Origin: a virus | Taxonomy: Duplodnaviria > Heunggongvirae > Uroviricota > Caudoviricetes | Strand: one strand, 5' to 3' | DNA: 34,652 nucleotides | Virus record (IMG/VR): IMGVR_UViG_2541047785_000009 | Shown: in pieces, positions 1,507-34,177 of the stretch | Position numbering within the stretch: the stretch's first letter is position 1 | How the letters are laid out: every line of letters begins with the position of its first letter | The notes under the pieces: model-generated | The model's database searches: none | The model's input: only the letters and a program-made list of their open reading frames with translations | Told to the model about the DNA's origin: nothing | Program-made: the position numbers and the translations under genes

Positions 1507-1534
1507 AATCTCCCTTACACGGGCTTATTTTTTA
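1507..1534. repeat. attL core: AATCTCCCTTACACGGGCTTATTTTTTA, direct repeat of 34150..34177
   Basis: 28-nt perfect identity with 34150..34177; the first 27 nt are the reverse complement of the P2 att core as I recall it (AAAAAATAAGCCCGTGTAAGGGAGATT). Confidence 0.85.
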
Positions 1535-1596
1535 CGCGTAATACAATGAAATAAAAGGATTTATTTCTGGTCACGTCCACACATTGACCACATCGA

Positions 1597-1621
1597 CAAA
1601 AAAGCCCCTCGACTGAGGGGC
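1597..1621 (-). terminator. Rho-independent terminator downstream of ogr
   Basis: Stem GCCCCTC / GAGGGGC with 4-nt loop; on the minus strand the stem is followed by a T6 run (plus-strand A run 1598-1603); lies just 3' of the ogr stop. Confidence 0.55.
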
Positions 1622-1634
1622 TTCCTGTTTGTAA

Positions 1635-1853
1635 TTACATCCACATAATTTGCTGCCCTGACGGCAACGGGTGCGGTCTTACGGCGTGGACTTCTCCCGG
1701 CTTCACGATGTATCGCTGTACCGACTCATAAGTGATGAACGTGGCGCTGCAATTCACGTTCTGACACTGGTGATAACGCTCTTTTGTCGTGTCAGTGATA
1801 TAGCGGCTTGTACGCGCATGTGCGGCATGCTGGCATAAAGGACAATGAAACAT
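1635..1853 (-). CDS. ogr: Ogr, zinc-finger late-gene transcription activator (72 aa)
   Basis: Track ORF 1635..1985 contains MFHCPLCQHAAHARTSRYITDTTKERYHQCQNVNCSATF...QQIMWM; ATG on minus strand at 1853..1851; Cys4 zinc-finger motif; the 44-aa upstream extension in the track is a longest-ORF artefact. Confidence 0.9.
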   Translation of the reverse strand: MFHCPLCQHAAHARTSRYITDTTKERYHQCQNVNCSATFITYESVQRYIVKPGEVHAVRPHPLPSGQQIMWM

Positions 1854-1935
1854 CGCGAGCACCTCTTCCGGTTTTGTTGATGGTGCCATTTTAGTTAATT
1901 TATCCTTATAAAACAAACAGATAAAATAAAAAACA

Positions 1936-3099
1936 TCACTCATCATCTTCTGTTTCGTACTCCACATCAGAAAGCCTGACCTCAAGCTCTAAGGACGTCG
2001 TGAAGCCGCTATTATTCAGAAAATGTGTCACCTTAGTGATTGTCCAGTCCTGCTCGTCTATGACGCGCTTAAAGCCTGACACTTTAACCGGTGTTTCCGT
2101 GTAAATATCAGCCCGACCGGTAGCCAGGCTGATGGAGAACTCCGCAACGCCCCGTTGCAGTTTATCCCACTTCGCCTGAGCGGCGCGCATGGCCTGCGCT
2201 TTCGTGGCATATACCGTAGTCAGGGCAAAAACATTGTCAGCCTCACCTGCCATGTATTCACCTTCGCGCGCTTCCGGTACTTTTGGCGCTTTCTTCTGCG
2301 TGACCGGTTTCGCTTTCGGGTGCTCCAGTGCGCGCAGGTGTTTCTCTTTCTTTTTGCGTTTCAGTTTTACCTTCTGCTTTTGCGGCTTCGGGTCTTTGGT
2401 GTGTAACCACTTTGCCGTTACGCCGGTGTAGGCTCCACGGTCAGCAATCGCAAAATGATGGCGGTCACCGTCGCTGCGGGTGATGGTGACCTGCGGGATT
2501 TTTTTACCGCTGGCCGTCACCCCCTGCCCCGCTTTGAGAAACAGCAGTTTTCCCATTTTTACCGACACCTCACCGCCGTTGCGTTCTGCAAGACGGGTCA
2601 GAAATTTCGCATCAGACTCCTGCGACTGGTCGATGTGCGGGATTTTAATTCCGGCCAGTGACGGAGCGACACTGGCTTCCAGCCTGTTACGGGAGGCTAT
2701 CGCCTCAACAATCGCACCGAGCGTGGTGTCATGCCATGAGCCTTCACGGCGGGAATTGAGCGTCCCGCGAAAATCTGCACTCCGGGCGCGGATGGTGACC
2801 ACATCCGGTGCGCCCCGGTGTTCAACCTCATCAACGGTAAATTTCCCTTTGCATACCAGGGCAAAACCTTTCCAGCCGATATACACCGTCAGGACAGCGC
2901 CACGAATCGGTAGTCCGACCTGCCCGTCGGCATCGTTCAGTTCAATATCAAGCTGGTCAGCCTCAAAGCCCCGGTTATCCGTCAGGGTCATGCTCATCAG
3001 ACGGTCGCTGATATTGCCGGTAATATCCCTGCTGTCGAGCATCAGCATGTAATCCGGCGTCAGCGTACTGCCTGCATCAAATGTCAGTGCATCCAGCAT
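1936..3099 (-). CDS. D: Tail protein D (P2 gpD-like)
   Basis: 387-aa ORF; sequence and position (between ogr and U) match P2 gpD; start overlaps the U stop. Confidence 0.9.
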   Translation of the reverse strand: MLDALTFDAGSTLTPDYMLMLDSRDITGNISDRLMSMTLTDNRGFEADQLDIELNDADGQVGLPIRGAVLTVYIGWKGFALVCKGKFTVDEVEHRGAPDVVTIRARSADFRGTLNSRREGSWHDTTLGAIVEAIASRNRLEASVAPSLAGIKIPHIDQSQESDAKFLTRLAERNGGEVSVKMGKLLFLKAGQGVTASGKKIPQVTITRSDGDRHHFAIADRGAYTGVTAKWLHTKDPKPQKQKVKLKRKKKEKHLRALEHPKAKPVTQKKAPKVPEAREGEYMAGEADNVFALTTVYATKAQAMRAAQAKWDKLQRGVAEFSISLATGRADIYTETPVKVSGFKRVIDEQDWTITKVTHFLNNSGFTTSLELEVRLSDVEYETEDDE

Positions 3100-3578
3100 T
3101 ATCCCGCCCTCGTCATACCTGTGAATCTGGTCGCCATACTGCCGGCCTTACCGATGAGCGACTCCGCCTGTTTACCGATATCGCCATAAAGCGCGGCCAG
3201 TGATTCATCAACGCGGGTGAGCGACAGCGTAAAATCAATTTTCCGGGGTGTGCCGTCTGCAAAGAAAATACTCCCTGTTTCACTCACCTTGCTGATGACA
3301 TACATGCCGTAAATCATGCCGGTGCCATCCAGCAACGGCCACGCCCGGCCTTCCTCTGCCATCAGCCTGAGCGTGGTCATCGTCAGCTTTCCGCCGGTCA
3401 GTTCGGGATAAAGCACACCGGCAAGCGTGATGTTTTCCTCACCCACACCGAGAAACTGAAAGGCATCCCGTTTACCGATACGGGAATTTGACGGCCAGCG
3501 ATAATCTGATTCACGCTGCATGGTCTGGTGTGGCAGCGTCTGGCGCATAAAAACAAACATACCTAACGCGAGCATCAT
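3099..3578 (-). CDS. U: Tail protein U (P2 gpU-like)
   Basis: 159-aa ORF in the P2 gpU position, sequence recognised. Confidence 0.9.
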   Translation of the reverse strand: MMLALGMFVFMRQTLPHQTMQRESDYRWPSNSRIGKRDAFQFLGVGEENITLAGVLYPELTGGKLTMTTLRLMAEEGRAWPLLDGTGMIYGMYVISKVSETGSIFFADGTPRKIDFTLSLTRVDESLAALYGDIGKQAESLIGKAGSMATRFTGMTRAG

Positions 3579-3592
3579 TTTTCGTCACCTCC

Positions 3593-6040
3593 TTAACCGT
3601 CATGCATCATGCTGGCACGGGCGCGCGCACGTTTATCCCGCTCGTATTTTTCGAGCGCATCCTGTAACTGGCGGTCAAGCTGTGTCCCCGGCGCAGTACC
3701 ACCCGTCAGGCTGATGTGATATTCGTTTTTACTCTGGTCTACATAAGAGCGGCCAGCCGGTGCCGTGACCGGCTGATAAGCCTGATAGCCTGCATAAGAG
3801 CTGGTCGCCGGAATATAACCACCGGTGCCATACGTGGCGGCATTAGTCCTTGCGGCGGTCTGGTCAAGTGTGTCTGACTCTTTGTTGATAACACCGAGTT
3901 TTTCCAGTACCCAGTCAATACCACTGCGCAGTTTGTTGAACGCATTAAGCGGCAGCATCAACGCGTCAGCCAGTGCCTGCCCGAACATGACGCCCGTGTC
4001 ACGGCAACGGTTCAGGGTGTCCTGTGTGGCTTTAACCGGGGCAATCAGGTTTTTAAACCACTGCCACGCGGCCTGTAACTTTTCACCCAGCCAGTCAAAC
4101 ACCGGTTTAAGTGGCGTGAACAGTTCCCCCACCGGCGCAAATGCCGCTTTCAGCCCTTCCACCACACCGCCAAAGAATGCGCTGACAGGCTCCCAGTATT
4201 TACGGATAAGCAACGCCCCGGCGACAATGGCGGCCACCACGGCCACAACCGGCCAGCTAATCGCCCCGACGGCCGTCATAACAGCACTGCCAACCGTCGT
4301 GAAGATTGCCCCCATTGCGCCTGCTGCCGCGATGATGGCATTGATGCCAGTGATAACCGGCCAGGCTACAAGACCAATGGCACCGATGATGCCAGTCAGC
4401 ACCAGTGCACCGCCGGCAATGATGCCGATGGTTGACGCCAGTGATTTGTTTTTCTGTATCCAGCCGTCGAGTTTTAACACATACTTTGTGGCCGTCTGCG
4501 TGAGCTTACGCAGTGCGCCTTCCTGCTGGTCAAACAGGTCAGTCCCCACCGCCTCATAAGCGGACTGAAACTCCTTAAAGTCACCGCCGAGATTGTCCTG
4601 CATGATATTTACCAGCTCTGAGGTCTTCCCGTCCGAGGCTTTAAACGCAGCGGTCAGTTTGTCCAGCTTTCCGGTTGAGGCGGCAGTCATCAGCACGGCG
4701 GCGGCTGAGCTGGCCTCCTCCCCGAAAATGGTTTTCATGTATTCAGCCTGCTGGGCAGTACCGAGCCGGTTTTTCTCAAAACTGGCCTGCATTTCTTTCA
4801 GAATGGTAAATACTGGTCGGGTATTCCCTTTACTGTCTGAGGTTTTCACGCCAAGCTCTTTGAGTGCATCCCATGCTTTTCCCGTCGGTGCCTGCAGGCG
4901 GCTTAACACGGCACGGCTTCCCGTCCCCGCCATTGAACCGGTAATTTTTGCATCATGCAGTGCCCCGACCATTGCGGCGGTTTCTTCAATGCTGACACCG
5001 GCATTTTTTGCCACAGGTGCGGCATAGGTCAGCGCATCGCTCATGCCGTCAAAATCGGCGGCGGTTCTGTTCATCGTCATGGAGAGAACATCCCCGATAT
5101 GAGCGACCTTATCGTTTGAAAGCTGAAAGGCGGATTTCATCCCCATCAGCAGGGCGGCGTTTTCTTCCATCGTGCGGCGGTTCGCCAGCGCCATATTCAG
5201 CGTGACCGGCGTTGCCGCCTGAATGGCATCAACATCCCCACCCGCTTTCGCGATGATTATCTGTGCACCGGCCGCATCATCCGCCGAGGCGGCGGTATTG
5301 TCGCCGAGCTGGCGCGCCTGTTTGCGTAGTGCGGTCATTTCGGCGGAGTCTTTTGCCACTCCGAGCACGGCCTGCAATTCTGAGTTTTTCTGCGCAAACT
5401 CATAACCGGGCATCAGCAACTTAACTCCGGCCATCGTTCCCGCCGCCGCAATCCCCACACCGGCAGCGCCCACTGAGGCCATATTTCCGGCCAGTTCCTT
5501 TCCGGCCTGATAACGCTGTTTTACTGCGTTAAGTTTTGCCTGTTGCGCACTGACACGCGCCAGCGCGTCACGCTGACGGTTAAGCTGTGCGGTGGTTTCA
5601 CTGATACGGTTTTTCAGTCCCTGCTCATCATGTGCAAGATTGCGGGTATTAATTCCCACAACGGCCAGTTCCCGCTGCTGGCGTTTAACGGAATCCGTCA
5701 GGCGGTTATATTTCGCCTGTAAGTCCTCCGCCGCACGCTTTGCGGATTCCAGCACTTTCGCCTGAGCACGTGTCGGACGTTCGGTGTTTTTAAACTGTGT
5801 GGCAAGGGCTTCGGCCTCCTGCCGTGCCTTTTCAAGTGCATGACCAGTCACGGCGAGCTGTGCACTGGTCTTGCGGAATCCCTCAATACGGGATGCGTGA
5901 CCGTTCAGCTCGCGCAGTGATTTTTGTGTTTCCCGGATATCCCCCGACAGCGACCTGCTCGCTGTACGGATGGATTTAAACGGGCGGGATGCCTGGTCAA
6001 CAGCCCTGAGCAATACCTGTAATTTTACATTGTTACTCAT
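3593..6040 (-). CDS. T: Tail tape measure protein T
   Basis: 815-aa ORF, same length as P2 gpT; Ala/Gly-rich with hydrophobic segments; immediately downstream of E/E'. Confidence 0.9.
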   Translation of the reverse strand: MSNNVKLQVLLRAVDQASRPFKSIRTASRSLSGDIRETQKSLRELNGHASRIEGFRKTSAQLAVTGHALEKARQEAEALATQFKNTERPTRAQAKVLESAKRAAEDLQAKYNRLTDSVKRQQRELAVVGINTRNLAHDEQGLKNRISETTAQLNRQRDALARVSAQQAKLNAVKQRYQAGKELAGNMASVGAAGVGIAAAGTMAGVKLLMPGYEFAQKNSELQAVLGVAKDSAEMTALRKQARQLGDNTAASADDAAGAQIIIAKAGGDVDAIQAATPVTLNMALANRRTMEENAALLMGMKSAFQLSNDKVAHIGDVLSMTMNRTAADFDGMSDALTYAAPVAKNAGVSIEETAAMVGALHDAKITGSMAGTGSRAVLSRLQAPTGKAWDALKELGVKTSDSKGNTRPVFTILKEMQASFEKNRLGTAQQAEYMKTIFGEEASSAAAVLMTAASTGKLDKLTAAFKASDGKTSELVNIMQDNLGGDFKEFQSAYEAVGTDLFDQQEGALRKLTQTATKYVLKLDGWIQKNKSLASTIGIIAGGALVLTGIIGAIGLVAWPVITGINAIIAAAGAMGAIFTTVGSAVMTAVGAISWPVVAVVAAIVAGALLIRKYWEPVSAFFGGVVEGLKAAFAPVGELFTPLKPVFDWLGEKLQAAWQWFKNLIAPVKATQDTLNRCRDTGVMFGQALADALMLPLNAFNKLRSGIDWVLEKLGVINKESDTLDQTAARTNAATYGTGGYIPATSSYAGYQAYQPVTAPAGRSYVDQSKNEYHISLTGGTAPGTQLDRQLQDALEKYERDKRARARASMMHDG

Positions 6041-6460
6041 TCGTGTTTCCGCTTCGCCGGAGCGCCTTTTCGCGCCATGTGATGAGTTCGGTCAGGCTCA
6101 TGGGATACAGTTCTGATGGCGGCCAGTGAAATATCACAGCCACATCCGCCATCAGGTCATCGACCGAGAGATTTTTCGGAAACGTCACTGCACCGAGTTC
6201 GGCGACAAAAAACCGACCACCTTACCGGCCAGCGCCACAAGGTCAGGCAGTTCCAGCGCGGCGACCTCCTGCTCGGTCAGCATCGGTGCCGTCATGCGCG
6301 GCAGCACTTTAATCAGTGCATCGACTTCGGAGTTTGCGACCGCAGCCAGACTGACACCGCGCAGCGTCCCGGCACTGGGTTTCATCAGCGTGACCTGTTC
6401 GATAACCTGCTCACCACGCTTGACCGGATTGTCCAGGGTAATCACATTTTCTTTGTTCAT
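6033..6460 (-). CDS. E': Tail assembly chaperone E+E' (programmed -1 frameshift product, about 141-142 aa)
   Basis: Minus-strand GG T TTT TTG at 6214..6206; after a -1 slip the frame reads VAELGAVTFPKNLSVDDLMADVAVIFHWPPSELYPMSLTELITWREKALRRSGNTNE and stops at TAA 6035..6033, overlapping the start of T (6040); worked out by hand from the sequence. Confidence 0.75.
6185..6460 (-). CDS. E: Tail assembly chaperone E (P2 gpE-like, 91 aa)
   Basis: 91-aa ORF ending ...VVGFLSPNSVQ; the slippery heptamer T TTT TTG sits 7 codons before its stop. Confidence 0.9.
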   Translation of the reverse strand: MNKENVITLDNPVKRGEQVIEQVTLMKPSAGTLRGVSLAAVANSEVDALIKVLPRMTAPMLTEQEVAALELPDLVALAGKVVGFLSPNSVQ

Positions 6461-6517
6461 GGTTTTCTCACTTCTGAATCGGGGGTTAACCGGTCAGCCT
6501 GGCTGACCGGATGAAAA

Positions 6518-7036
6518 TCACAGGCCGATATTGCGGCGGTGTTGCTCCAGCCGGTCGACGCCGTTCACCTTCTCAATCATGTTGATGGTGTCAATTTCGA
6601 CCAGCTCCTTACCGTCCATCGTCAGCCGGAAATAGGTGCAGACCACGGAGATTTTCGACTCGGTGTCTTCTCCCTGTTTACCCTCACCGGTGTCGATTTC
6701 TTTCTGACGGCCACGCATGACCACTTCGACGGCCACCGTTTCGCCGGTATCGTCGCGCTGGTAAGAGCCTGCAAAACGAATCGGCACGGCATCCACGCCG
6801 GTTGCGGCGTAAAGCTCCCAGATAACCGAATCCGGGAAGCCCCCGAGCGACCACTCCATTGACAGCGCATCGTCATCAAGGCCGAGGTCTACCGGTGCGC
6901 TGCCGTTCATCCCCGCACCGCGATAGTTTTCGAGCTTACGGGTCAGTTTTGGCAGCGTGACGGACTTTGCAACGCCCTGATAGCTGTAGCCGTTCAGAAA
7001 GACGTTCATTAACTTGAGTTTGCGCGGCATTGCCAT
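6518..7036 (-). CDS. FII: Tail tube protein FII
   Basis: 172-aa ORF, P2 gpFII length and position. Confidence 0.9.
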   Translation of the reverse strand: MAMPRKLKLMNVFLNGYSYQGVAKSVTLPKLTRKLENYRGAGMNGSAPVDLGLDDDALSMEWSLGGFPDSVIWELYAATGVDAVPIRFAGSYQRDDTGETVAVEVVMRGRQKEIDTGEGKQGEDTESKISVVCTYFRLTMDGKELVEIDTINMIEKVNGVDRLEQHRRNIGL

Positions 7037-7048
7037 CGGTCAGGCTCC

Positions 7049-8239
7049 TTAATTGCTGTTAACCGAGGTGACCAGATTTGCCAGGTATTTATCGGTAATA
7101 CGCTGGCGCAGGGTCAGGTTTTCAAGAGGAGGCACCGGGGTATAGTCATAGTCGATATACAGTTTTCCGGCCTTGAGGGTTTCCGCATCGTTGGATTCTT
7201 CGCTGAACCAGCAGGTCGCATCCACGATATAGCCGTTTGTTTTCAGCTCACGGAATTTGGCATTGATGCCGTCAACGATGTCGCGAATCAGCGTTGCAGT
7301 GATGGGCTTGTCCACCGCCCACATGTGCGCCTCAGCCATCGTGTCGGCCAGCACCTGCGCGGTGCGGGTGTAGTTTTCAAAGAGGAACAGCGGGTCATCA
7401 GAGCAGGTACGGTTACCCCAGAAGCGGAAACCGTCACGGCGAATCAGTGTTGTGACGCCTGACTCGTTAAGCAGGTCAGCATCGGTGCCGGACTCCTGCA
7501 AATCCCAGAATACAGATGCGCTGATGCCGGTAACACCGTTTACCCCGACGTTGGACAGCGTTTTATGCCAGCCCTGCTCCTGGTCGATTTTAGCGCGCAG
7601 ACCCAGCGCACGGGCGGTAGCATACGCGGTGGCGGTGGTACTGGTGACCGTATCCCATGCGAGGAAATCCGGCCAGATGACCATCAGCTCACGCTGGCTG
7701 AAATTCTGGCGGTAGGCTTTCACCTCGGAAATGGTTTTACAGCCCCATGCGCTGATATATCCGAAAGCGCGCAGCTTCTGACAGACTGATGCCAGTGCAA
7801 CAGCCACCTCTTTGGTATCCAGCCCCGGCACACCAAGAATACGCGGTTTAACACCGGTTACCGACTCCGCCGCCAGCAGGGCTTTCAGTCCGGTGTACTG
7901 ACCGTTTTCGTCAGTGGTGCCGATGATATTGGAAACGGTCTGCGCGAGTTTCGTTTCCTCGTCATCACCGGTGCCGTCTTCCACGCGCACGACAACGGTG
8001 ACCGGTTTTGACTGGTCAGCGATGGCCTGCAACGATGCCGCCAGCGTGCCTTTTTTACCGGCCTTTGCAATTGCGCTCTGCACATTGGTAATCAGTACAG
8101 GTTTATTGAGGGGAAAGGTTTCCGCATCCGCATCGCTGGCCGTGCAGACCATGCCGACAATGGCAGTGGATACGGTGGAAATGACGCGGGTGCCGTCGTT
8201 AATCTCCAGCACCTGCACGCCATGATGATAGTCACTCAT
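7049..8239 (-). CDS. FI: Tail sheath protein FI
   Basis: 396-aa ORF, P2 gpFI length and position. Confidence 0.92.
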   Translation of the reverse strand: MSDYHHGVQVLEINDGTRVISTVSTAIVGMVCTASDADAETFPLNKPVLITNVQSAIAKAGKKGTLAASLQAIADQSKPVTVVVRVEDGTGDDEETKLAQTVSNIIGTTDENGQYTGLKALLAAESVTGVKPRILGVPGLDTKEVAVALASVCQKLRAFGYISAWGCKTISEVKAYRQNFSQRELMVIWPDFLAWDTVTSTTATAYATARALGLRAKIDQEQGWHKTLSNVGVNGVTGISASVFWDLQESGTDADLLNESGVTTLIRRDGFRFWGNRTCSDDPLFLFENYTRTAQVLADTMAEAHMWAVDKPITATLIRDIVDGINAKFRELKTNGYIVDATCWFSEESNDAETLKAGKLYIDYDYTPVPPLENLTLRQRITDKYLANLVTSVNSN

Positions 8240-8363: not shown

Positions 8364-8460
8364 GTCCTGATTTGTACTCACTCATTTTCCAACTGACTAT
8401 TACATAGCCCAAACGCTATCAAATCTGACAGTCTGCTTTGAGCGAGCAGCGGAAGAAATC

Positions 8461-8489
8461 TTTACACAGAGATGAAAATTATCGAAAAT
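8461..8489 (+). promoter_or_regulatory. Candidate sigma70-type promoter for the Z/fun-slot cargo gene
   Basis: TTTACA (8461-8466), 17-nt spacer, GAAAAT (8484-8489); AT-rich region about 70 nt upstream of an RBS GGAGAGAG and the ATG at 8561; weak -10, so tentative. Confidence 0.25.
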
Positions 8490-8560
8490 AGCTCTACGCG
8501 GCTGAGCGGGATGCTTATCATAAATTTGGTTTATGGTTTGTTTTAGTTCTGGAGAGAGAA

Positions 8561-9781: not shown

Positions 9782-9834
9782 GGGCATTTTAGAAACGAAT
9801 GCCTAGTTACAATACGTTAGTATAATTTTGAAAA

Positions 9835-9885
9835 TGTCCGCTACTGGCACAGAGCGGACTGTCAGATTAGGCTTTACTCTGTGCC
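9835..9885. other. Palindromic region between convergent cargo gene and G (possible bidirectional terminator)
   Basis: Alternative stems GTCCGCT/AGCGGAC (9835-9841 / 9853-9859) and GGCACAGAG/CTCTGTGCC (9846-9854 / 9877-9885); no clean T run, so the terminator role is tentative. Confidence 0.3.
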
Positions 9886-9920: not shown

Positions 9921-10448
9921 TTATTGCGGCATTTCCGGCCATTCAGGATTTGCAGGATCCACACGACTGACCAGAACGCTGTAGCGTTCCCATGCTTCCA
10001 GTCGGCTACGCTCCGCATCTGTTGCCATGTTCAGTCTGACCGCGCGCTCCAGCGGCAAAATCACGGATTCAGCATCTGCAAGAAGTCTGGCTTTCCGAAT
10101 TTCTGCCTGCTTCTGCAATTCCTCTGCCGTATAAATTCGTTTGATCACTGTGCCATCCTTAAACATCCAGTTCCCTGAAATGTCCGCCCGTCGGTTAGCA
10201 GTAATATCCTCCACTTCAACAACACTTAATCCATCCGGTCTGATAGCTGTCACATCCTTTTCCACATAGCGGATGATATTATCTTTGTCGTACGCTATTT
10301 TTATCGTGTCATCAGCAAAATACTTTTGTTGTTCGTACCAGTTCTCACCATCTTCTGAAAAAAACCAGACAACATCAAAGTCCTTTGTCAACTGATATTG
10401 TTCAACCGTTTTTGGATTACCCGCCGTAATATTTTTTAAATGCTGCAT
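9921..10448 (-). CDS. G: Tail fibre assembly chaperone G
   Basis: 175-aa ORF, P2 gpG length and position, immediately downstream of H. Confidence 0.88.
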
Positions 10449-10451
10449 AAA

Positions 10452-14140: not shown

Positions 14141-14144
14141 GGTT

Positions 14145-25414: not shown

Positions 25415-25433
25415 GTGCTTTCCCCGCCTCGCC
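25415..25433. other. cos site (19-nt cohesive-end sequence)
   Basis: GTGCTTTCCCCGCCTCGCC is the reverse complement of the P2 cohesive end GGCGAGGCGGGGAAAGCAC as I recall it; located right of Q as in P2. Confidence 0.75.
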
Positions 25434-25763: not shown

Positions 25764-27983
25764 ATGGAACTTAAATTAAAGAATATAACCAGCTATAAGA
25801 AAGATAGCTTCACGACTCTTAATCTCTCAAAAAAAATTAATATACTTTATGGTCACAACGGTTGTGGAAAATCAACCATATCTAATTATTTCTATAATCC
25901 AAATAACACGGACTACAAAGAATGCGAATGTCCTTTCATAGATACTTTTCGCCTATTGGTTTATAATACTAAGTTTGTTGAGGATAATTTTTATAATGCA
26001 AAAGAGCAAAAAGGAGTATTCACTTTAAGTAAGGAAAATGCTGACATTGAAAAAGAATTGTTGGAAAAAGAAGCTATAAGACAAGACCTACTTACAAAAT
26101 ACAAAGATAAAAAAAACGTTATTGAACGTTTAATTAAAGATAAAAACAATAAAGAAAATGAATATATTGATTTAATATGGAATAAAGCAGAACCTTTTAG
26201 ATCATCTGACTTAAAGAACTTGATGAAAGGTCAGTTAGGAAGCAAGAGATCATTTTATGAGCAAGTTAAAAAAGCCCCTCAAACCACTGACGTTAACATC
26301 GAGTCACTTGCTCAAGAATATAGTATTCTTTTAAAGAACAAAGATAAATTCACTGCATCAATTACACCTTTAGAAAAATATATCATTTCAGAAAAAGATA
26401 AAGAATCTTTATCCACTCCGATTATAGACTCAAGTAATAGCTATTTGTCAGAAACAATTAAACAACTTCAAAACCTTGACTGGGTGAAAAAAGGGAAGGA
26501 ATTATATTTAAATGGCACATGTTGCCCATTCTGCCAAGAAGACACTATTAAAGACAAATTTTTAGAAGCAATTGAATCTATCTTTGATGATAGCTACTCC
26601 AAGAAAGTTGACCAAATACGCATTATCAGATCGTCTTATGAATCCGCTACCATAGATAATTTAAGAAAAATAAAACAAGAGATTTCATCTTGTGAATTAA
26701 TCACCTCAAAAGAAAAAGATATAACATCATCTCATATAGCGTTATTAGAGGAAATAGCAAACAAAAACTTAAAATTGATGTTAGATAAAATCAATAACCC
26801 ATCTATATCTATTATTTTGGAATCCAATAGCGACCTTGAAGCAAAGGTAGTTGATAATATAACAGAGTACAACAATAGAATTAAAGAAATAAATATTAAA
26901 GTCAAACAATTTAAGGATAGTGAAAAGTCTATACGTTACAAAATATGGGGAGCAATAAGAGAATTATGCAACGCTGAGTTTGAAGCTTTCTCAAAATATG
27001 AGAATGACTATAAAATCATTTATGAACAATATCAACTTGAATTAAATACCATAAAAGAACAAGGAGATAACAATAGCAAAAAGATCAAAGAGCTACGCGA
27101 TCAAATATCTAACATTGATGCAACCATAGATTCTATAAATCAACGTCTAAAATTATTAGGAATTTATGGTTTTAGCATAAAAAAACACACTGAGAGCAAT
27201 GATAAATATATTATATCACGTTCTGAAAACACAACAGATAAAGATGTATACAGATCTCTTAGCGAGGGTGAAAAAACTTTAATTACCTTTCTCTACTTTC
27301 TGGAATGCTGTAAAGGTAAGACAGATAAGAATGATACGGATATGCGAGATGTATTTATCGTTATTGATGATCCAATATCCAGCCTCTCTCAAAATTATGT
27401 GTACGATATTGCTTCAATAATTCACCATGAAATAATCAACAATAACAAAGCAGTAAAGAAAACATTAATACTCACACATAACCTTTATTTCTTTCATGAA
27501 CTTATCAAATTAGCTCCTAGAAGCAAAGAAGATAGAACATTCAAGCGTGATTATTATCTTGGACGAGTAACAAAAAATGAATATAGCATAATTACAGAAA
27601 TAGAGAAAAAGAGCATTCAGAATGAATACCAGTCCCTATGGCAAGTATTAAAAGATGCGAAGGATGGAAGGGTAAATAAAGTTATAATACCTAACATCAT
27701 GAGAAATATACTGGAATACTACTTCGCATTTGTTCATAGAACGGATGCATTACAGACAGAGTTAAATAAACTTGCTAGCGATGATAAGAATAATGATTTT
27801 AGAGCATTTTATAGATACATTAATAGAGGTTCCCATTCAGATGCAGTTAATATCACAGACATGGGAGATATATCTCCAGAGAAATATATGGAGCAACTAA
27901 AAACCATTTTTCGTATGACTGGTGATGAAAAACATTATTTGAAAATGATGGACGAAGAGGAAGAGGAAACCGTTACCGCTTAG
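25764..27983 (+). CDS. Cargo gene in old/tin slot: 739-aa ABC/Rad50-like ATPase with coiled-coil CxxC zinc hook and C-terminal putative anticodon-nuclease domain (RloC/PrrC-like architecture)
   Basis: Strongly AT-rich ORF; RBS GAGG 7 nt before the ATG; Walker A G30-HN-G-C-GKST; long Lys/Glu-rich coiled-coil; C254-P-F-C257 hook; ABC signature L499-SEGEK; Walker B V530-FIVIDDP; H-loop T571-H572; C-terminal R647-x3-E651 and H691, resembling the PrrC/RloC Arg-Glu-His triad. Confidence 0.8.
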   Translation: MELKLKNITSYKKDSFTTLNLSKKINILYGHNGCGKSTISNYFYNPNNTDYKECECPFIDTFRLLVYNTKFVEDNFYNAKEQKGVFTLSKENADIEKELLEKEAIRQDLLTKYKDKKNVIERLIKDKNNKENEYIDLIWNKAEPFRSSDLKNLMKGQLGSKRSFYEQVKKAPQTTDVNIESLAQEYSILLKNKDKFTASITPLEKYIISEKDKESLSTPIIDSSNSYLSETIKQLQNLDWVKKGKELYLNGTCCPFCQEDTIKDKFLEAIESIFDDSYSKKVDQIRIIRSSYESATIDNLRKIKQEISSCELITSKEKDITSSHIALLEEIANKNLKLMLDKINNPSISIILESNSDLEAKVVDNITEYNNRIKEINIKVKQFKDSEKSIRYKIWGAIRELCNAEFEAFSKYENDYKIIYEQYQLELNTIKEQGDNNSKKIKELRDQISNIDATIDSINQRLKLLGIYGFSIKKHTESNDKYIISRSENTTDKDVYRSLSEGEKTLITFLYFLECCKGKTDKNDTDMRDVFIVIDDPISSLSQNYVYDIASIIHHEIINNNKAVKKTLILTHNLYFFHELIKLAPRSKEDRTFKRDYYLGRVTKNEYSIITEIEKKSIQNEYQSLWQVLKDAKDGRVNKVIIPNIMRNILEYYFAFVHRTDALQTELNKLASDDKNNDFRAFYRYINRGSHSDAVNITDMGDISPEKYMEQLKTIFRMTGDEKHYLKMMDEEEEETVTA

Positions 27984-28230
27984 GCCGCATATCATCGGGT
28001 TGGGTAAGAACGACGGTGTTCACACACCGTCTCCCACTTACCGAAACGATAGCGATTGTACTGACGTACTTTCACTAACTTTAACATGAGATTATCTCCA
28101 TGCCAGCACTATTGTTGCCAATAGCAGCCTTTACACCCTTTGTATAAAGCTAATACCAAGAGCAATGCAAGGATACCCCAAGCGGTAACTGGCGTGGATT
28201 CTAGAGCAGCCTAACTAAAAAATCAAAGCA

Positions 28231-30498
28231 TTAATTAAATCCCGGCCACTCATCATTTACCGGATACCTGAAGTTTACCCCCTCATAATTTACGGTTGCC
28301 CCACGCGCCAGCGCCTCAAGCTCCCATCGCTGAGGCCTGATACCGTTCTGACCAAGGTCAACGCGGATACGGGGGATTTGCATTCGTTCCGACCGGGTCA
28401 GTCTGGCCGAAGGCGCAATTTCATGCGGTTTTAACGGGCTTCCGTTTCTTTGCTGACGATTTGGTGTTCTCAGTTCGTGTTTTAATGCCCCCCTGAGCGC
28501 CCTCACGACATCCGGGTCATTCCATTCGATCACACCGTGATCGACCAGATTAAGCACGGCTGCGGCATGTTCAGAAGGTGTGGGAGCCGTTAACGAAGTA
28601 TCACTGCCGGTGAACTTTCCACAGTTATTGACAGGACTCCGAGGCGCGGCGATGCCGCTTTTTAAAGTCAAAGGCTCAACGACCGGCACTTTCGGAACAA
28701 TGCGCCAGTCCGTCGTTCTGGTGATATGAATATGACGCGCGCCGAGATGCGGCGCGTAAATGCCGACCACTCTCTCGACTTCTTCCTCGTACTCGTTAAC
28801 GTCATCCGACGGGCTACGGGCGACCCTGACAGTCTGACAATCGCGCGGGACATTTGCCCCGCCCTGCGCGCTGATATACAACGCAAAATCACCACTGTCT
28901 GCAGCGGCGCGTGCAGCCTCGACGCGCTCGTCAAACTCATCAGCAATGCTGACGCCACGAGGCAATTTGCGTAGTTCACGGTAAGCCCCCATTGTCGGCA
29001 GACCAACCGTTTTAAATTGCGGAATGCGCCACGTTGACGCCCATGCGGTAACAGCCGCAGCTGTGTCTTTCAGCGGCCTACCGGTATCATTATCGAGCTG
29101 ACCATCCAGTGCATAGCCGTCGATGTTTTTTGAGATGTATTTCGCGATATATCCCGCAGCACCGCCCCGGTTAAGGTGTTTTGCCTGAAAACGGTTTCGC
29201 GCGGCTCCTCTTTCGTCGCCATCCTCTTTGAGCGCATAGCGACGCATGATTTCAATAATCTGGTTACGCTGGCGTGGATTACAAAAAAGCATCATATGCC
29301 AGTGCGGCGTTCCGTCGTGGTGTGGTTCAACAACACGCAAACCGTAGGCCTGTAAATCATTATCCTTGAATGCCGTGCGCATCAGGCTCCAGATACGGCA
29401 GAGATAACGCTGCGCATCCTTTGGATTAAATGCCTCATCGTTCCAGCCGTGATTAAGCTGAACGGTTTTACTTTCGCCTTTTCCGACCTGACGTGTCGGG
29501 TGATACTTTGACGGCGCGGTCAGCGTGATAAACATCCCCACATCACCCTCTGCGGCGGCGTAACGCTCAATACCGGCAATGGTGTTCATCAGCTCCATCC
29601 GGCGAATTTCAGGATTAGAAATACTGCCCATCACCTTACTGATAAGGTCGATGCGCTCGCCGGTTTCCCTGTTTTCAAGGTCACACGATTTAAGAAATTC
29701 CAGATTTGCCTGGCGGCGCGCACGCACATCACGAATGGCGTGTTTACTGGCATAAGGAGAACGGTCTTTATTGACCTCCCCGACAGCTATCAGTAACGCC
29801 TCATGCCAGCGCATACGCTGGCCTTTAAGCTGATGAGTCCACCACTCATCGTTAAACAGGCGGGCAATGGCAGAATATGCCTGCCTCGTGGTCATCTGTC
29901 CTTTACGGTATTTTTTCCAGTAGAGCGGGGAAATATTGAAAGCACGTGCAGCGCCAGCAACATGACCATACAGGTGAGCCTGCGCCTCATCCGTAAACAG
30001 CGATTCTTTTTCACCATGCGCATCAACCCAGGCATCGCAGAGTTCCTCATACATTATGAAAAGCTGCGATGAGATACGGGCGGCAAACTTTTTCAGCTCC
30101 TTGTCATTCATTCCAGGCAGGCGCGCATAGTGGTCACGCTCTGCCAGAAACAGCAACGACGCGTCGGTGTTCATTTCATGGCGCTGATTAACGCGCTCAA
30201 TGCGCGGCCATAAACGACGCTGAAAAGTGGATGTGAGGAAATAAAACCCGTGCACCGGGCTTTTATTGCGCCGGATGTAGTCATAGCGTGAAGTAAACAG
30301 CGAGCGCAAAAAGTAAGGCAGGCGATTAATCGTGGATAAAACACCTTGCACCTGACGCATCTCGTCACGTGTAAGGGGTCTTTCGCGCCCGACAGCCTCG
30401 CGTGGCGCGTTCCATGCATAAGCACCGGTAAACGTCTTACCGGTGCCTGCGGCAAATGCTGACGGAGGGACAAAACGCCCGGAGGCTTTAACGGCCAT
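28231..30498 (-). CDS. A: Replication initiation protein A (rolling-circle nickase)
   Basis: Track ORF 28231..30540 begins at a TTG; the P2 gpA-like N-terminus MAVKASGRFVPPSAFAAGTGK starts at ATG 30498 with AGAGG about 12 nt upstream; start is uncertain by 42 nt. Confidence 0.85.
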   Translation of the reverse strand: MAVKASGRFVPPSAFAAGTGKTFTGAYAWNAPREAVGRERPLTRDEMRQVQGVLSTINRLPYFLRSLFTSRYDYIRRNKSPVHGFYFLTSTFQRRLWPRIERVNQRHEMNTDASLLFLAERDHYARLPGMNDKELKKFAARISSQLFIMYEELCDAWVDAHGEKESLFTDEAQAHLYGHVAGAARAFNISPLYWKKYRKGQMTTRQAYSAIARLFNDEWWTHQLKGQRMRWHEALLIAVGEVNKDRSPYASKHAIRDVRARRQANLEFLKSCDLENRETGERIDLISKVMGSISNPEIRRMELMNTIAGIERYAAAEGDVGMFITLTAPSKYHPTRQVGKGESKTVQLNHGWNDEAFNPKDAQRYLCRIWSLMRTAFKDNDLQAYGLRVVEPHHDGTPHWHMMLFCNPRQRNQIIEIMRRYALKEDGDERGAARNRFQAKHLNRGGAAGYIAKYISKNIDGYALDGQLDNDTGRPLKDTAAAVTAWASTWRIPQFKTVGLPTMGAYRELRKLPRGVSIADEFDERVEAARAAADSGDFALYISAQGGANVPRDCQTVRVARSPSDDVNEYEEEVERVVGIYAPHLGARHIHITRTTDWRIVPKVPVVEPLTLKSGIAAPRSPVNNCGKFTGSDTSLTAPTPSEHAAAVLNLVDHGVIEWNDPDVVRALRGALKHELRTPNRQQRNGSPLKPHEIAPSARLTRSERMQIPRIRVDLGQNGIRPQRWELEALARGATVNYEGVNFRYPVNDEWPGFN

Positions 30499-30763
30499 AT
30501 GAGCCAAAAGCCTCTGAACAACGCTTGCTGAGTTGCTCAACCTGCGCGTTTAAATCAGCAAAAGACTTTGCGCTTCCGGTCAGAATATCGTGATGCATCA
30601 GGCCGGAAACGAGCTGGCTTAATTTCGGGTAATAACCAACCACCGCCAGCCATTCCTGACCGGCGTTTTTACCGCTTTCCGCTCTCTTTTTCTCGTGGAG
30701 AATAAACTGAAAGCTGTCACTGGTAACGACATAACGTTCGCCAATTTCAATACGAATACTCAT
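30488..30763 (-). CDS. Early-operon hypothetical protein (P2 orf83 position)
   Basis: 91-aa ORF, ATG at 30763, overlaps the A start; conserved position in P2 early operon. Confidence 0.7.
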   Translation of the reverse strand: MSIRIEIGERYVVTSDSFQFILHEKKRAESGKNAGQEWLAVVGYYPKLSQLVSGLMHHDILTGSAKSFADLNAQVEQLSKRCSEAFGSYGR

Positions 30764-30984
30764 GCCGTTCTCCGGTAATGTTTGTTTTTTGCTTCAAAGA
30801 CTGACTGGCAGGAAACACAACGCGTGGCTGACGGATAAGCCGCACGACGGGCAGCAGGTATTGGCGCGTCACACTCTTCGCAAACCAGCGCAGAAACACC
30901 GCAATGCTTTACCCTTGCCGCGTTAATCTGGCGCTCCAGTAATTCAGCCTGTTGTTCCTGAATAAAATCTACGTTGTCCGGCAT
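30760..30984 (-). CDS. TraR/DksA-family C4 zinc-finger protein (P2 orf82 position)
   Basis: 74-aa ORF with C-x2-C...C-x2-C (CEECDAPIPAARRAAYPSATRCVSC); ATG at 30984. Confidence 0.75.
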   Translation of the reverse strand: MPDNVDFIQEQQAELLERQINAARVKHCGVSALVCEECDAPIPAARRAAYPSATRCVSCQSVFEAKNKHYRRTA

Positions 30985-31286
30985 TACCAGCTCCTTTTGT
31001 CGTTAAGTTTTTTAAATTCATCAGCGCAATAGCTGGCAATTTCTGTCGTTAATTTCGTCAGTTCGTCCACGGAGGAGATTTGCTTGTGAAATACAGCGCG
31101 TTTAACAAGTAAATTGACCACATCAGACAGGAGATTTAATTCGTTCTGATAAATCGCGATAACAGACTCAGTTATTTCGCGTTTTTCTTTATCAAGACCA
31201 AGTTGAATAAGAGATAAATCGCCATTTTTCATAACGGCGATTTTTAAGGCGTTATTCAGTAATACAACTGAACGAGAACAGGACAT
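30984..31286 (-). CDS. Early-operon hypothetical protein (P2 orf81 position)
   Basis: Track ORF 30984..31289 starts at a TTG; the adjacent ATG at 31286 is the likely start. Confidence 0.65.
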   Translation of the reverse strand: MSCSRSVVLLNNALKIAVMKNGDLSLIQLGLDKEKREITESVIAIYQNELNLLSDVVNLLVKRAVFHKQISSVDELTKLTTEIASYCADEFKKLNDKRSW

Positions 31287-31510
31287 CAAAGCACCTCCCC
31301 GCGAGACAATCCGATATTGTGAAATTTTTCCGACTCCTGACTGAGCAGCTCGACTATCTCCACGCGGGATAACTCCGCCTTTGTGATGTGGCGAATCATG
31401 GCGTCAAGATGAGAAGAAAAGCGCGTCGCTGCGTCGGCCTGTGCTTCGGTTCTGGCCTGTTGCAGCAGTAATGCGTATTTACCGCACTGATTTTCAGAAA
31501 CTGTATGCAT
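31286..31510 (-). CDS. Early-operon hypothetical protein (P2 orf80 position)
   Basis: Track ORF 31286..31543; internal ATG at 31510 with GGAGA 5-6 nt upstream gives 74 aa (MHTVSENQ...). Confidence 0.65.
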
Positions 31511-31573
31511 GACTTTCTCCAGGCAAAAAGAAGCCCCGCACAATTAAGTGCGTTAAAAACTCTGGTTAATTAC

Positions 31574-32080
31574 TTAATGCAGATATTGCTCTGGTTTTAC
31601 CGACGTCAGAATTGTCGGTGCATACTCAAACAGACTGAATAATTCACGTAATGCACGGAATAAAGCATCACGCCAGTAACATGATTCTTCATTAATTCGC
31701 CAGTATGGCTGGTTGAATTCTTTTTCAGTCAATCCGGCATGCATAAATAAAGTACGACGCTGACTGACTGTTAAAAAACTAATATATGCATACTCACTTG
31801 CGCCAACCTGACGGCGTTTTGAGAATGCCCCACGCAATTCATCAATTGCACAAACCAGCCGTTCACGTTCGACGTCGTTCATTTCTTCAAAACGCATCGT
31901 TGCGTGACGCTGTTTTAACTGCGCATGAAAGCAAACCGTTAACCGTTCGCGCTCCATCATCTGATTATAATAATCACATGTATCCTGCCAGCGAGGAACG
32001 GCAAGATGCTTACCAATTATCCGGCGCATAGCTGCTGGCTGTTTTTCAACGAGATTGAGCGTCATCACTGTCATTTCCAT
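31574..32080 (-). CDS. B: Replication protein B
   Basis: 168-aa ORF in the P2 gpB position; ATG at 32080 (an in-frame ATG 2 codons later is an alternative start). Confidence 0.85.
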   Translation of the reverse strand: MEMTVMTLNLVEKQPAAMRRIIGKHLAVPRWQDTCDYYNQMMERERLTVCFHAQLKQRHATMRFEEMNDVERERLVCAIDELRGAFSKRRQVGASEYAYISFLTVSQRRTLFMHAGLTEKEFNQPYWRINEESCYWRDALFRALRELFSLFEYAPTILTSVKPEQYLH

Positions 32081-32265
32081 ACCCTCCGGCTTTTCAGAAA
32101 GGTCAGAGCCTTTTTTAACGGACTCTGTTTTTTGGTGCGGATAATGATTCCCTTACGCCCCTTACCGTGGGTGATGGTGAAGTCAATCGCCCTGGGGCTT
32201 TCGTTACGCAGTAACTGAGCAATACAACGAGGCTCATTCATACGGTTCTCCTTAACGTGGTTCAC
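32071..32265 (-). CDS. Small early protein (P2 orf78 position)
   Basis: 64-aa track ORF between cox and B; the track start appears to be a non-ATG codon and an internal ATG (MNEPRC...) is the alternative. Confidence 0.55.
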   Translation of the reverse strand: MNHVKENRMNEPRCIAQLLRNESPRAIDFTITHGKGRKGIIIRTKKQSPLKKALTFLKSRRVWK

Positions 32266-32527
32266 CGAGACCTAACCACATCAACCAGCCGTCACGAATC
32301 TCTTTAGGGCGGCTTTCATAAGCCAGTTTTAGTCCGTTATTCCATGCCGGAAGGTATACCCAATATTCACCTGCATGACCTGAAGCTGATTGTGGATCGG
32401 TCATATCAATTACAGGCAGCTTTCCTTTATCAATCATCCGACGAACCGCTCCTGTCGATTTTCCTATTAGTTTTGCGAACTCCTGATAAGGAATCGCATC
32501 AGTCATGAGTGTTACTTGCTTGCTCAT
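32252..32527 (-). CDS. cox: Cox, excisionase and early-transcription regulator
   Basis: 91-aa ORF MSKQVTLMTDAIPYQEFAKLIGKSTGAVRRMIDKGKLPVIDM... recognised as P2 Cox; first gene of the early operon. Confidence 0.92.
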   Translation of the reverse strand: MSKQVTLMTDAIPYQEFAKLIGKSTGAVRRMIDKGKLPVIDMTDPQSASGHAGEYWVYLPAWNNGLKLAYESRPKEIRDGWLMWLGLGEPR

Positions 32528-32641
32528 GTCGTCCTCTAGCCCTCATGAATTGCGTTTAATGTCTTATAATGCCTTTTAGTGCCCACATCCAAGCACTAAA
32601 CAATCTACATCTAAACTAAATACTATTGAGATCTAAACACC
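32528..32641. promoter_or_regulatory. Immunity switch region (Pe/Pc promoters and C-repressor operators) between cox and C
   Basis: 114-bp AT-rich region between divergent cox and C; perfect TATAAT at 32567-32572; two direct ATCTAAAC repeats at 32609-32616 and 32631-32638, 22 bp apart, consistent with direct-repeat operator half-sites. Confidence 0.6.
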
Positions 32642-32941
32642 ATGTCAAACACGATAAGCGAGAAGATAGTCTTAATGCGAAAATCAGAGTATTTGAGCAG
32701 ACAACAACTTGCTGATTTAACAGGGGTTCCGTATGGCACGCTGAGTTACTATGAAAGTGGTCGTTCAACACCTCCAACAGATGTCATGATGAACATCCTG
32801 CAGACCCCACAATTCACCAAATACACTTTATGGTTCATGACCAATCAGATCGCTCCTGAGTCCGGGCAAATTGCGCCCGCTCTCGCACACTTTGGGCAAA
32901 ACGAAACAACGTCGCCCCACTCCGGTCAAAAGACTGGTTAA
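32642..32941 (+). CDS. C: Immunity repressor C
   Basis: 99-aa ORF MSNTISEKIVLMRKSEYLSRQQLADLTGVPYGTLSYYESGRSTP... recognised as P2 C; helix-turn-helix segment QQLADLTGVPYGTLSYYE. Confidence 0.92.
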   Translation: MSNTISEKIVLMRKSEYLSRQQLADLTGVPYGTLSYYESGRSTPPTDVMMNILQTPQFTKYTLWFMTNQIAPESGQIAPALAHFGQNETTSPHSGQKTG

Positions 32942-33056
32942 CAATTCATCGTGAATATATTCATCACAAGTGCCTACTATTGGTGGCTAAATTTCAGCCA
33001 CCACGAAAAAAGCGATTAGTAGTCGCAAAAAAACACACCACTCGGAGGGTTTTCTG

Positions 33057-34070
33057 ATGGCAATCAAAAAACTCGATGATGGTCGATATGAAGTGGACAT
33101 CCGCCCTACTGGACGTAATGGAAAACGCATCCGTAGGAAGTTTGATAAGAAAAGCGAAGCTGTCGCTTTCGAGAAATACACGTTGTACAACCACCACAAT
33201 AAAGAATGGCTATCAAAACCAACAGACAAGCGACGTCTGTCGGAGCTGACACAGATCTGGTGGGATTTAAAGGGTAAACACGAAGAGCATGGGAAATCTA
33301 ATCTTGGAAAAATTGAAATCTTCACAAAAATAACGAATGACCCATGCGCATTTCAAATTACGAAATCGCTTATCAGCCAGTACTGCGCCACCCGAAGAAG
33401 TCAGGGTATTAAACCTTCGAGTATCAATCGTGATTTAACATGTATTAGCGGCATGTTTACAGCCCTGATTGAAGCGGAGTTATTCTTTGGTGAGCACCCT
33501 ATCAGAGGGACAAAAAGGCTTAAGGAGGAAAAACCAGACACAGGCTATCTCACGCAGGAAGAAATTGCCTTACTGCTTGCTGCTCTTGACGGCGACAACA
33601 AAAAGATTGCGATTCTTTGCCTGAGTACTGGAGCGCGTTGGGGAGAAGCAGCTCGTTTGAAAGCAGAAAATATCATCCATAACCGCGTCACGTTTGTTAA
33701 AACGAAAACAAACAAACCACGCACCGTCCCGATCTCAGAGGCTGTTGCCAAAATGATCGCGGATAACAAACGAGGTTTTTTATTCCCTGATGCTGATTAC
33801 CCTCGCTTCAGACGAACAATGAAAGCAATAAAACCGGATTTGCCAATGGGGCAAGCCACACATGCACTAAGGCACAGCTTTGCCACTCATTTCATGATTA
33901 ATGGAGGAAGTATTATCACGCTACAACGGATACTAGGTCACACGCGGATTGAGCAAACTATGGTTTACGCTCATTTTGCGCCAGAGTACCTTCAGGACGC
34001 CATTTCTCTTAATCCGCTAAGAGGTGGTACTGAGGCCGAGAGTGTCCACATAGTGTCCACAGTAGAGTAA
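33057..34070 (+). CDS. int: Tyrosine integrase Int
   Basis: 337-aa ORF; RBS GGAGGG 8 nt before the ATG; C-terminal HxxR...Y motif (HALRHSF...TMVYAHF); adjacent to attR. Confidence 0.93.
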   Translation: MAIKKLDDGRYEVDIRPTGRNGKRIRRKFDKKSEAVAFEKYTLYNHHNKEWLSKPTDKRRLSELTQIWWDLKGKHEEHGKSNLGKIEIFTKITNDPCAFQITKSLISQYCATRRSQGIKPSSINRDLTCISGMFTALIEAELFFGEHPIRGTKRLKEEKPDTGYLTQEEIALLLAALDGDNKKIAILCLSTGARWGEAARLKAENIIHNRVTFVKTKTNKPRTVPISEAVAKMIADNKRGFLFPDADYPRFRRTMKAIKPDLPMGQATHALRHSFATHFMINGGSIITLQRILGHTRIEQTMVYAHFAPEYLQDAISLNPLRGGTEAESVHIVSTVE

Positions 34071-34149
34071 CGTTTAAGGGCTTTCAGTGGTAATTTATGC
34101 CGCTCAAACCCGCATTGTACCGTTGAAAGCCCCTACTGGTGACACCCTA

Positions 34150-34177
34150 AATCTCCCTTACACGGGCTTATTTTTTA
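34150..34177. repeat. attR core: direct repeat of 1507..1534
   Basis: 28-nt perfect identity with the left copy; flanking bases differ on both sides. Confidence 0.85.

Follow-up and report, generated by a model that had tools for sequence, protein, structure and literature searches.

The window analyzed here (the whole stretch of 34,652 nucleotides [nt], IMG/VR virus record IMGVR_UViG_2541047785_000009) contains, at positions 1507 to 34177, an intact prophage of the P2 species (Peduovirus), lying in an Escherichia coli chromosome between yegQ and yegR. We consider it very probable that this prophage carries defense cassettes of already known types in its two hotspots, a Shedu nuclease gene in one and an RloC-like gene in the other, that its third variable slot, between genes S and V, holds P2's own orf30, and that the cassettes turn over independently of each other. 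The two hotspots have been defined as the endonuclease-portal (gpA-gpQ) and tail-fiber assembly-sheath (G-FI) intervals (PMC9122126, PMC9519451, PMC13586616), and by coordinates both cassettes sit inside them. The features of the three slots are as follows.

8456..9832, plus strand: Shedu cassette, 1377 base pairs (bp), GC content (GC) 0.336, delimited by blastn breakpoints; replaces P2 15362-17430 (fun(Z))
8561..9781, plus strand: sduA, predicted Shedu immune nuclease, 406 amino acids (aa), by PF14082, PADLOC SduA and PDB 8PS4
15208..15993, plus strand: orf30, P2's own nonessential AT-rich gene, 261 aa; 90.0% aa identity to P2 Orf30; PHROG 2407
25463..28237, plus strand: RloC-like cassette, 2775 bp, GC 0.314, delimited by blastn breakpoints; replaces P2 30295-33545 (orf91-tin-old)
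25764..27983, plus strand: predicted RloC-like ABC-ATPase/anticodon-nuclease gene, 739 aa, by AAA_13, PDC-S06 and motifs

A P2 backbone with two replaced slots

We characterized the region by listing its open reading frames (ORFs), by composition, by BLAST against a phage collection, and by alignment to annotated P2 (AF063097 / NC_001895). Three colinear blocks matched P2 (blastn): window 1507-8455 aligned to P2 24382-17431 (96.9% nt identity), window 11974-25433 to P2 13458-1 without a break (97.2%), and window 28238-34177 to P2 30294-24355 (97.8%), so that the backbone is about 97% identical to P2 at the nt level. With all 42 P2 proteins as tblastn queries against the window, 38 were detected, 36 of them at full length with 93.8-100% aa identity, and fun(Z), orf91, tin, and old gave no match. 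Gene order, the att core, cos, and the position of orf30 are shared with P2. The real replacements are three: the Z/fun region, where sduA stands for fun(Z); the orf91-tin-old region, where a single RloC-like gene stands for the three; and the 3' part of H together with G, which exchanges the C terminus of H. What sets the prophage apart from reference P2 is the exchange of modules at two known defense hotspots and in the module for tail-fiber specificity.

A preliminary description of this DNA had reported an intact core from which old, tin, and orf91 were missing, and three islands of high AT content, with a single plus-strand gene in each. Both observations were borne out, with fun(Z) as a further absentee: the GC of the whole prophage is 0.504 and that of the sequence outside the islands about 55%, while the per-gene values for the single ORFs at 8561-9781, 15208-15993, and 25764-27983 are 0.335, 0.331, and 0.301, respectively. 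The same description took all three slots to hold non-P2 cargo and proposed three candidate defense modules, namely, a nuclease, a foreign membrane protein, and an ATPase-nuclease. Here, the first and last survive, the nuclease as Shedu SduA and the ATPase-nuclease as an RloC-like rather than an OLD-type protein, and two slots are replaced. The membrane protein does not survive as cargo, since it is P2 Orf30 and has no recognizable defense homology in profile, homology, and fold searches.

The S-V gene is P2 orf30. P2 Orf30 aligned to the ORF at 15208-15993 over 261 of 261 aa at 90.0% identity, in the same position and on the same strand (tblastn), and the gene lies inside the uninterrupted 97.2% alignment; it is equally AT-rich in P2 (GC, 0.340). 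Its synonymous divergence (dS) from P2 is 0.10, equal to that of its neighbors (0.06-0.14), and orf30 has therefore codiverged with the backbone. Across 5,426 complete E. coli genomes, a P2-type S-V junction was present in 1,571, with orf30 in 459 of these (29%) and abutting flanks in the rest. The slot mostly has two alleles, each comprising the whole intergenic region, either 66 bp with a hairpin of its own or 938 bp with orf30 (window 15125-16062), and one gives way to the other precisely at the V start and the S stop. Rare alleles encode a 414-aa ATP-binding protein (CFSAN061770) or contain a 347-aa ORF (L135) or a 741-bp ORF (phage R18C).

The Orf30 protein is a member of an orphan family, for which 1.84 billion proteins yielded 44 representatives. 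It matched phrog_2407 (6e-145), a PHROG of unassigned function, and has three hydrophobic segments that are predicted to be transmembrane (hydropathy). Its ratio of nonsynonymous to synonymous divergence (dN/dS) is 0.51, compared with 0-0.23 in the neighbors, and 24 of its 26 substitutions fall in residues 2-56 (the first transmembrane segment and the loop that follows), which suggests relaxed or diversifying selection on the N terminus. By analogy with fun, tin, and old, which share its layout, Orf30 might be a membrane exclusion or abortive protein expressed in the lysogen, a guess that we make with low confidence. Directly after the orf30 stop and before the end of S is a hairpin with near-perfect 17-nt arms (15999-16035). 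Its position is that of the terminator annotated for the O operon of P2, and it likely serves orf30 and the late operon alike as a bidirectional terminator.

The Shedu and RloC-like genes

The 406-aa protein of the G-FI slot matched PF14082 (DUF4263/SduA_C PD-(D/E)xK; 7e-36, score 124 with a cut-off of 27 bits) and, over its full length, the PADLOC SduA model PDLC04067 (4e-234). Residues 3-405 aligned to the solved E. coli SduA (EcSduA; 8PS4/8PS5, E = 3e-167), and the crystal structure of the N domain (8PS6) was matched too. The residues found essential in EcSduA by mutagenesis are E226, Q230, D269, E283, K285, and Q/E314, with W25 as the end-stacking residue (Loeff et al. 2023, 10.1101/2023.08.10.552762); the prophage protein keeps E224, Q228, D267, E281, K283, Q312, and W24, that is, all of the catalytic and end-stacking positions. 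It has the length class and the two-domain architecture of EcSduA as well; by eye, the two are about 70% identical, which makes the prophage protein a diverged allele. Judged by its sequence, then, the ORF at 8561-9781 is the Shedu gene sduA.

EcSduA protected more than 30,000-fold against T2 and T6, and escapers carried uvsW mutations that suppress recombination-dependent replication (Loeff et al. 2023, 10.1101/2023.08.10.552762). Shedu in the Z/fun locus of P2 prophages was already published in the same study, and this locus has been described as the second P2 defense hotspot (Vassallo et al.). From homology to the solved EcSduA, the N-terminal clamps of an SduA tetramer would sense free double-stranded DNA ends, and its PD-(D/E)xK domains would nick DNA near the 5' end. 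Such nicking would block phages that replicate via linear intermediates. P2 replicates from circle to circle and packages from monomeric circles, so an end-sensing nickase would be tolerable to the phage that carries it.

The Shedu cassette was present in 10 complete E. coli genomes. It is 100% identical in the P2 prophage of NCTC9088 and 99.3% identical in one non-P2 element, and 8 of the 10 copies appear to lie outside P2 (two were inspected, and six were assigned from the same 93.5% match profile). The 99.3% copy, in CT282 (L017, 6001-7377), belongs to an element with an integrase, a VbhA antitoxin, and TrbL/TrbJ/TraJ, near thrW and adjoining IteA/IteS. In ABW_A32 (L018, 6001-7372), a 93.5% copy lies in a defense island that also encodes a HEPN protein and a large AAA ATPase and contains a fragment of an integrase.

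The cassette of the gpA-gpQ slot begins 29 bp past cos and reaches about 7 nt into A at that gene's 3' end, and because its boundary falls there, the last codons of A differ from those of P2. Its 739-aa protein matched Pfam AAA_13 from end to end (3e-102) and the PADLOC candidate PDC-S06 over its full length (6e-253). We located Walker A (GHNGCGKS, 30-37), signature (LSEGE, 499-503), and Walker B (FIVIDD, 531-536) motifs and the switch H572, a helical insert of about 460 aa in the ATPase domain with CPFC (a CXXC zinc hook) at 254-257, and the anticodon-nuclease triad R647-x3-E651-x39-S690-H691. The ATPase, CPFC, and triad residues are invariant in 39 homologues, down to 22% identity. One of these homologues, which has the Joint Genome Institute (JGI) name "wobble nucleotide-excising tRNase" (P0071), was 28% identical over 98% of the 739-aa query (E = 1e-59). 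Geobacillus RloC is roughly 800 aa long, against 739 aa for the prophage protein.

RloC has been defined by an ABC-ATPase, a Rad50-like coiled coil with a central CXXC, and Arg-X3-Glu-X36-52-His, often with Ser before the His (PMC2610378). In a comparison made by these published motifs, every sequence feature of that definition was found in the prophage protein. With Geobacillus kaustophilus RloC (Davidov & Kaufmann 2008) it shares the ABC motifs, the CXXC insert, Arg-X3-Glu-X39-(Ser)His, and the single-gene arrangement, and like RloC it is not linked to a type I restriction-modification (R-M) locus. "AAA_13 - RloC-like" is system #5 of the gpA-gpQ hotspot, found in 420 of 18,150 loci (Rousset et al. 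2022, Table S5B), and thus of the same hotspot as the gene described here; the representative printed in that survey is about 65% identical to the prophage protein, by eye, over the N-terminal stretch shown. The architecture read from the sequence is a Rad50-like ABC-ATPase head, which a coiled coil bearing the CPFC hook interrupts, and then a C-terminal Arg-Glu-His anticodon-nuclease domain. By analogy with RloC, the protein would stay silent until it received a DNA-damage or DNA-end signal, and once activated it would cleave tRNA and halt translation, amounting to abortive infection. A defense function is predicted for the gene.

Other identities were considered for this protein. The PADLOC PrrC model matched residues 454-734 (3e-14), and the catalytic triad is shared with PrrC; PrrC, however, is always found inside a type I R-M locus and is without the coiled-coil/zinc-hook insert (PMC2610378), and we rejected it on finding no hsd genes in the window and a large coiled-coil insert in the protein. 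An OLD-type nuclease was rejected as well, with no tblastn match to P2 Old and no TOPRIM or OLD families among the Pfam or PADLOC matches. Models of the OLD family, PARIS, Lamassu, and Septu matched weakly and at the P-loop region only, whereas AAA_13 and PDC-S06 matched at full length. NCBIfam gave no match for any of the three slot proteins, and a sequence search of the PDB gave none for the RloC-like protein or Orf30.

The RloC-like cassette was found at 98% identity or more in 20 complete E. coli genomes, adjoining the replication endonuclease gene. Across prophages, the edges of this slot are fairly fixed on the cos side (25462-25471 in most) and ragged on the A side (28238-28481). A direct repeat of 22 nt (86% identical, 25603-25624 and 28218-28239) flanks the RloC-like gene, its second copy overlapping the A stop; in such AT-rich DNA, the match is probably due to chance.

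Cargo assortment and competing readings

Comparison with other prophages showed that this one is a recombinant. Window 1539-25469 matched the P2 prophage of NCTC9088 (NZ_LR134226.1) as one block at 98.8%, and window 25134-34652 matched an ETEC1701-type prophage at 98-99%; the ETEC1701 prophage is rearranged and is located at yegQ/yegR. From ogr to cos (the left 24 kb) the prophage is NCTC9088-like, and from the RloC-like cassette to int (the right 9 kb) it is ETEC1701-like, with the junction at cos. The NCTC9088 prophage has the same H/G, also carries orf30, and is identical in its Shedu cassette, but it differs in its gpA-gpQ slot, which holds Dcm, a helix-turn-helix protein, and a SacI-family restriction enzyme, and in being integrated next to pflB. 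The cargo found together with each cassette in P2 prophages is listed below, by slot.

Shedu, this window: old/tin slot, RloC-like; S-V slot, orf30
Shedu, NCTC9088: old/tin slot, Dcm + SacI-type R-M; S-V slot, orf30
Shedu, JNE141411: old/tin slot, SIR2 + ATPase; S-V slot, empty
Shedu, L137: old/tin slot, DprA-type cargo; S-V slot, orf30
RloC-like, GF4-3: G-FI slot, invertase module; S-V slot, empty
RloC-like, CFSAN061770: G-FI slot, DUF3606-type cargo; S-V slot, a gene other than orf30
RloC-like, L138: G-FI slot, small-gene cargo similar to that of CFSAN061770; S-V slot, empty
RloC-like, JNE170426: G-FI slot, 403-aa ORF; S-V slot, orf30

Among the 5,426 complete E. coli genomes, the 10 with the Shedu cassette and the 20 with the RloC-like cassette had no genome in common. 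Ten prophages with identical gpK had nine different gene contents at their ten gpA-gpQ loci; at the G-FI slot, six carried an invertase module and four carried assorted cargos, and orf30 was present in three. The clearest case is a metagenome scaffold from the European Nucleotide Archive (L137). Against window 7085-25470 it shows only 5 mismatches in 18,386 nt; at exactly 25470, the slot boundary nearest cos, the two part, and the scaffold continues with a DprA-type cargo where the window has the RloC-like gene. A near-identical backbone with different cargo points to a very recent cassette swap. The exact cargo combination of the window does recur in draft assemblies, in L132 and 6 similar places (99.99%) and in L136 (99.5%), and identities this high indicate the clonal spread of one prophage, not independent assembly.

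On the evidence here, the slots do not covary, and their contents assort independently even among near-identical backbones. The cargo set would then reflect independent and rapid cassette turnover rather than a coinherited or coadapted trio. The preliminary description had offered the combination as a useful test of covariation, with cargo tabulated per slot in other P2-like prophages: the cargo proved varied, and the covariation did not appear. A survey of 1,511 P2 found nonhomologous defenses in 99% of pairs, correlations of at most 0.2 between defense cargo and core genes (near-zero linkage), and systems in several hotspots in 10% of the defense-carrying P2 (Moura de Sousa et al. 2026, PMC13586616). 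Taken with the slot contents listed above, the published near-zero linkage means that the question of covariation had already been answered, with the same outcome.

It is highly improbable that all three variable slots were filled independently with foreign defense genes to give a three-layer defense. There are indeed AT-rich plus-strand genes at three classical variable loci, two of them in defense families, and the TO region, the Z region, and orf30 are loci that commonly hold non-P2 genes (PMC3091744). The S-V gene itself argues otherwise: 90% aa identity to P2 Orf30 within a contiguous 97% alignment refutes the claim of non-P2 cargo, and a dS equal to that of the neighbors, an occurrence in 29% of S-V junctions, and the lack of defense homology in the searches above do not suit a foreign defense gene. 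Coadaptation of the Shedu and RloC-like genes, with or without orf30, such that Shedu would nick ends and the Rad50-like RloC would sense the damage as a backup abortive layer, strikes us as very unlikely. The recurrence of the exact combination in several draft assemblies fits it, as do the action of Shedu on DNA ends and the response of RloC to DNA breaks reported in PMC3874168. The recurrences, however, are essentially one lineage; none of the complete genomes has both cassettes; each cassette also occurs with other partners (Shedu with SacI-type R-M, SIR2 + ATPase, and DprA cargos, and the RloC-like gene with the invertase module, DUF3606 cargo, and the 403-aa ORF); and linkage in the published survey is near zero (PMC13586616).

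A third possibility, that one or more of the cargo genes serve the prophage in some other way (the RloC-like gene as a stress or addiction module, Orf30 as a lysogenic-conversion membrane protein), we regard as unlikely. The gpA-gpQ hotspot also holds partition systems and a cytolethal distending toxin (Rousset 2022), our literature search found no experimental validation of the PDC-S06/RloC-like family as an anti-phage system, and Orf30 is an orphan. Yet the RloC-like family is listed among the defense genes of the hotspot and is scored as defense associated by PADLOC, no variation was seen in its catalytic triad or ATPase motifs, and the P2 genes with this layout (fun, tin, and old) are all exclusion genes. 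The missing validation of PDC-S06 also weighs against the reading that we prefer, two hotspots with defense cassettes of known types beside a resident orf30, and so do a few other points. The defense role of RloC is itself inferential in the literature. Sigma-70 scans of the three slots found promoter-like sites upstream of the cargo genes to be no commoner than in shuffled sequence, and we did not use these promoter scans or the accompanying terminator scans as evidence for independent transcription. For Orf30, homology and fold searches gave no match that points to a function, and the moderate confidence of its structural model (pLDDT, 72.8) limits what can be read from the fold.

The prophage is an unremarkable case of a phenomenon already well documented, and both pairings of cargo and slot are already known (Loeff 2023; Rousset 2022). 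No new question about hotspot covariation is opened, this having been answered at scale in published surveys. The main value of the analysis is annotation, of an intact, naturally circulating P2 whose Shedu allele and RloC-like gene are under their native control. Such a prophage is a convenient chassis for work on the putative defense role of the RloC-like/PDC-S06 family and for the coexistence of a putative DNA-end-sensing nickase with a cohesive-ended phage. Only two points might repay further work, the RloC-like gene and the inverted-repeat boundaries of the G-FI slot.

Slot boundaries and remaining features

The Shedu cassette is bracketed by the 32-nt arms of an inverted repeat, just outside the P2 breakpoints.

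8422..8453, no strand: FI-side arm, AATCTGACAGTCTGCTTTGAGCGAGCAGCGGA; 84% complementary to 9837-9868
9837..9868, no strand: G-side arm; contains the hairpin GTCCGCT-N10-AGCGGAC

Other prophages have the arms around seven unrelated cargos of the G-FI slot (L004, L011-L013, L020, and L022 are among the loci with arms), and in every comparison homology to the window stops at 8446-8455 and restarts at 9830-9848. Invertase-type prophages are without arms, and their homology to the window ends at 8330. Scanning IMG/VR with the G-side arm, we found 61 arm pairs around 34 different cargos, AT-rich, of defense types, and 790-5,839 bp in length (L023-L102); none of these pairs was empty and none was inverted. 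The bracketed cargos include PARIS-like, LmuB, DarT/Macro, AbiGi, ABC-3C, RES, and RelA/SpoT genes.

Outside P2, the arms accompany the Shedu cassette in CT282, where a further 35-55 bp of P2-like flank comes with them, and ABW_A32 has just the inner halves of the arms. The ends of homology differ between these two contexts (8388-9923 and 8439-9859, respectively), and transposon ends are for that reason not supported. Crossover sites of the invertase were rejected too, given that the invertase-type prophages have no arms and no cargo occurred in both orientations. On the late-gene (minus) strand, the G-side hairpin is followed by a T-rich run, which makes it a plausible terminator of the V operon. 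Most simply read, the arms are a conserved part of the backbone with a terminator in it, marking the limits of the hotspot and providing homology for exchange. That they are instead recognition or structure signals of a dedicated cassette exchange, shared by P2 phages and other mobile elements, seems doubtful to us. If undescribed, these boundaries offer a simple sequence handle for cargo mining and a pointer to cassette exchange.

The rest of the window consists of host flank and P2 backbone, with the exchanged tail-fiber module.

1..1362, plus strand: host yegQ (3' part), left flank; 100% identical in E. coli genomes including K-12
1507..1534, no strand: att core, ogr side; 28-mer repeated at the other end
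1638..8239, minus strand: P2 ogr, D, U, T, E/E', FII, FI (late control, tail); tblastn 98-100% aa identity, full length
9921..12698, minus strand: tail fiber assembly G and tail fiber H; G 73% aa identity to P2, H P2-like N-terminally
12709..15124, minus strand: P2 I, J, W, V baseplate genes; 97-99% aa identity
16065..25245: P2 S, R, lysC/B/A, K, Y, X, L, M, N, O (minus strand) and P, Q (plus strand); 94-100% aa identity, full length
25415..25433, no strand: cos, 19-nt cohesive end; the alignments to P2 1-19 and 33575-33593 overlap here
28231..32527, minus strand: P2 A, orf83-80, B, orf78, cox (early/replication operon); 96-100% aa identity
32642..34070, plus strand: P2 immunity repressor C and integrase int; 100% and 99.4% aa identity
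34150..34177, no strand: att core, int side; 28-mer repeat

The two copies of the 28-nt att core, AATCTCCCTTACACGGGCTTATTTTTTA, are identical and agree with the P2 attP core, and cos lies next to Q. On the chromosome, yegR was seen on the side opposite yegQ in a related prophage at the same site. In the tail-fiber module, which is exchanged relative to P2 and is the same in NCTC9088, G is full length (73% aa identity to P2; gene-level nt match, 77%). H has 748 aa, compared with 669 in P2, is P2-like over its first 251 aa only, and contains a tandem repeat of 132 bp (44 aa) in 3.4 copies with a 90% match (11709-12158).

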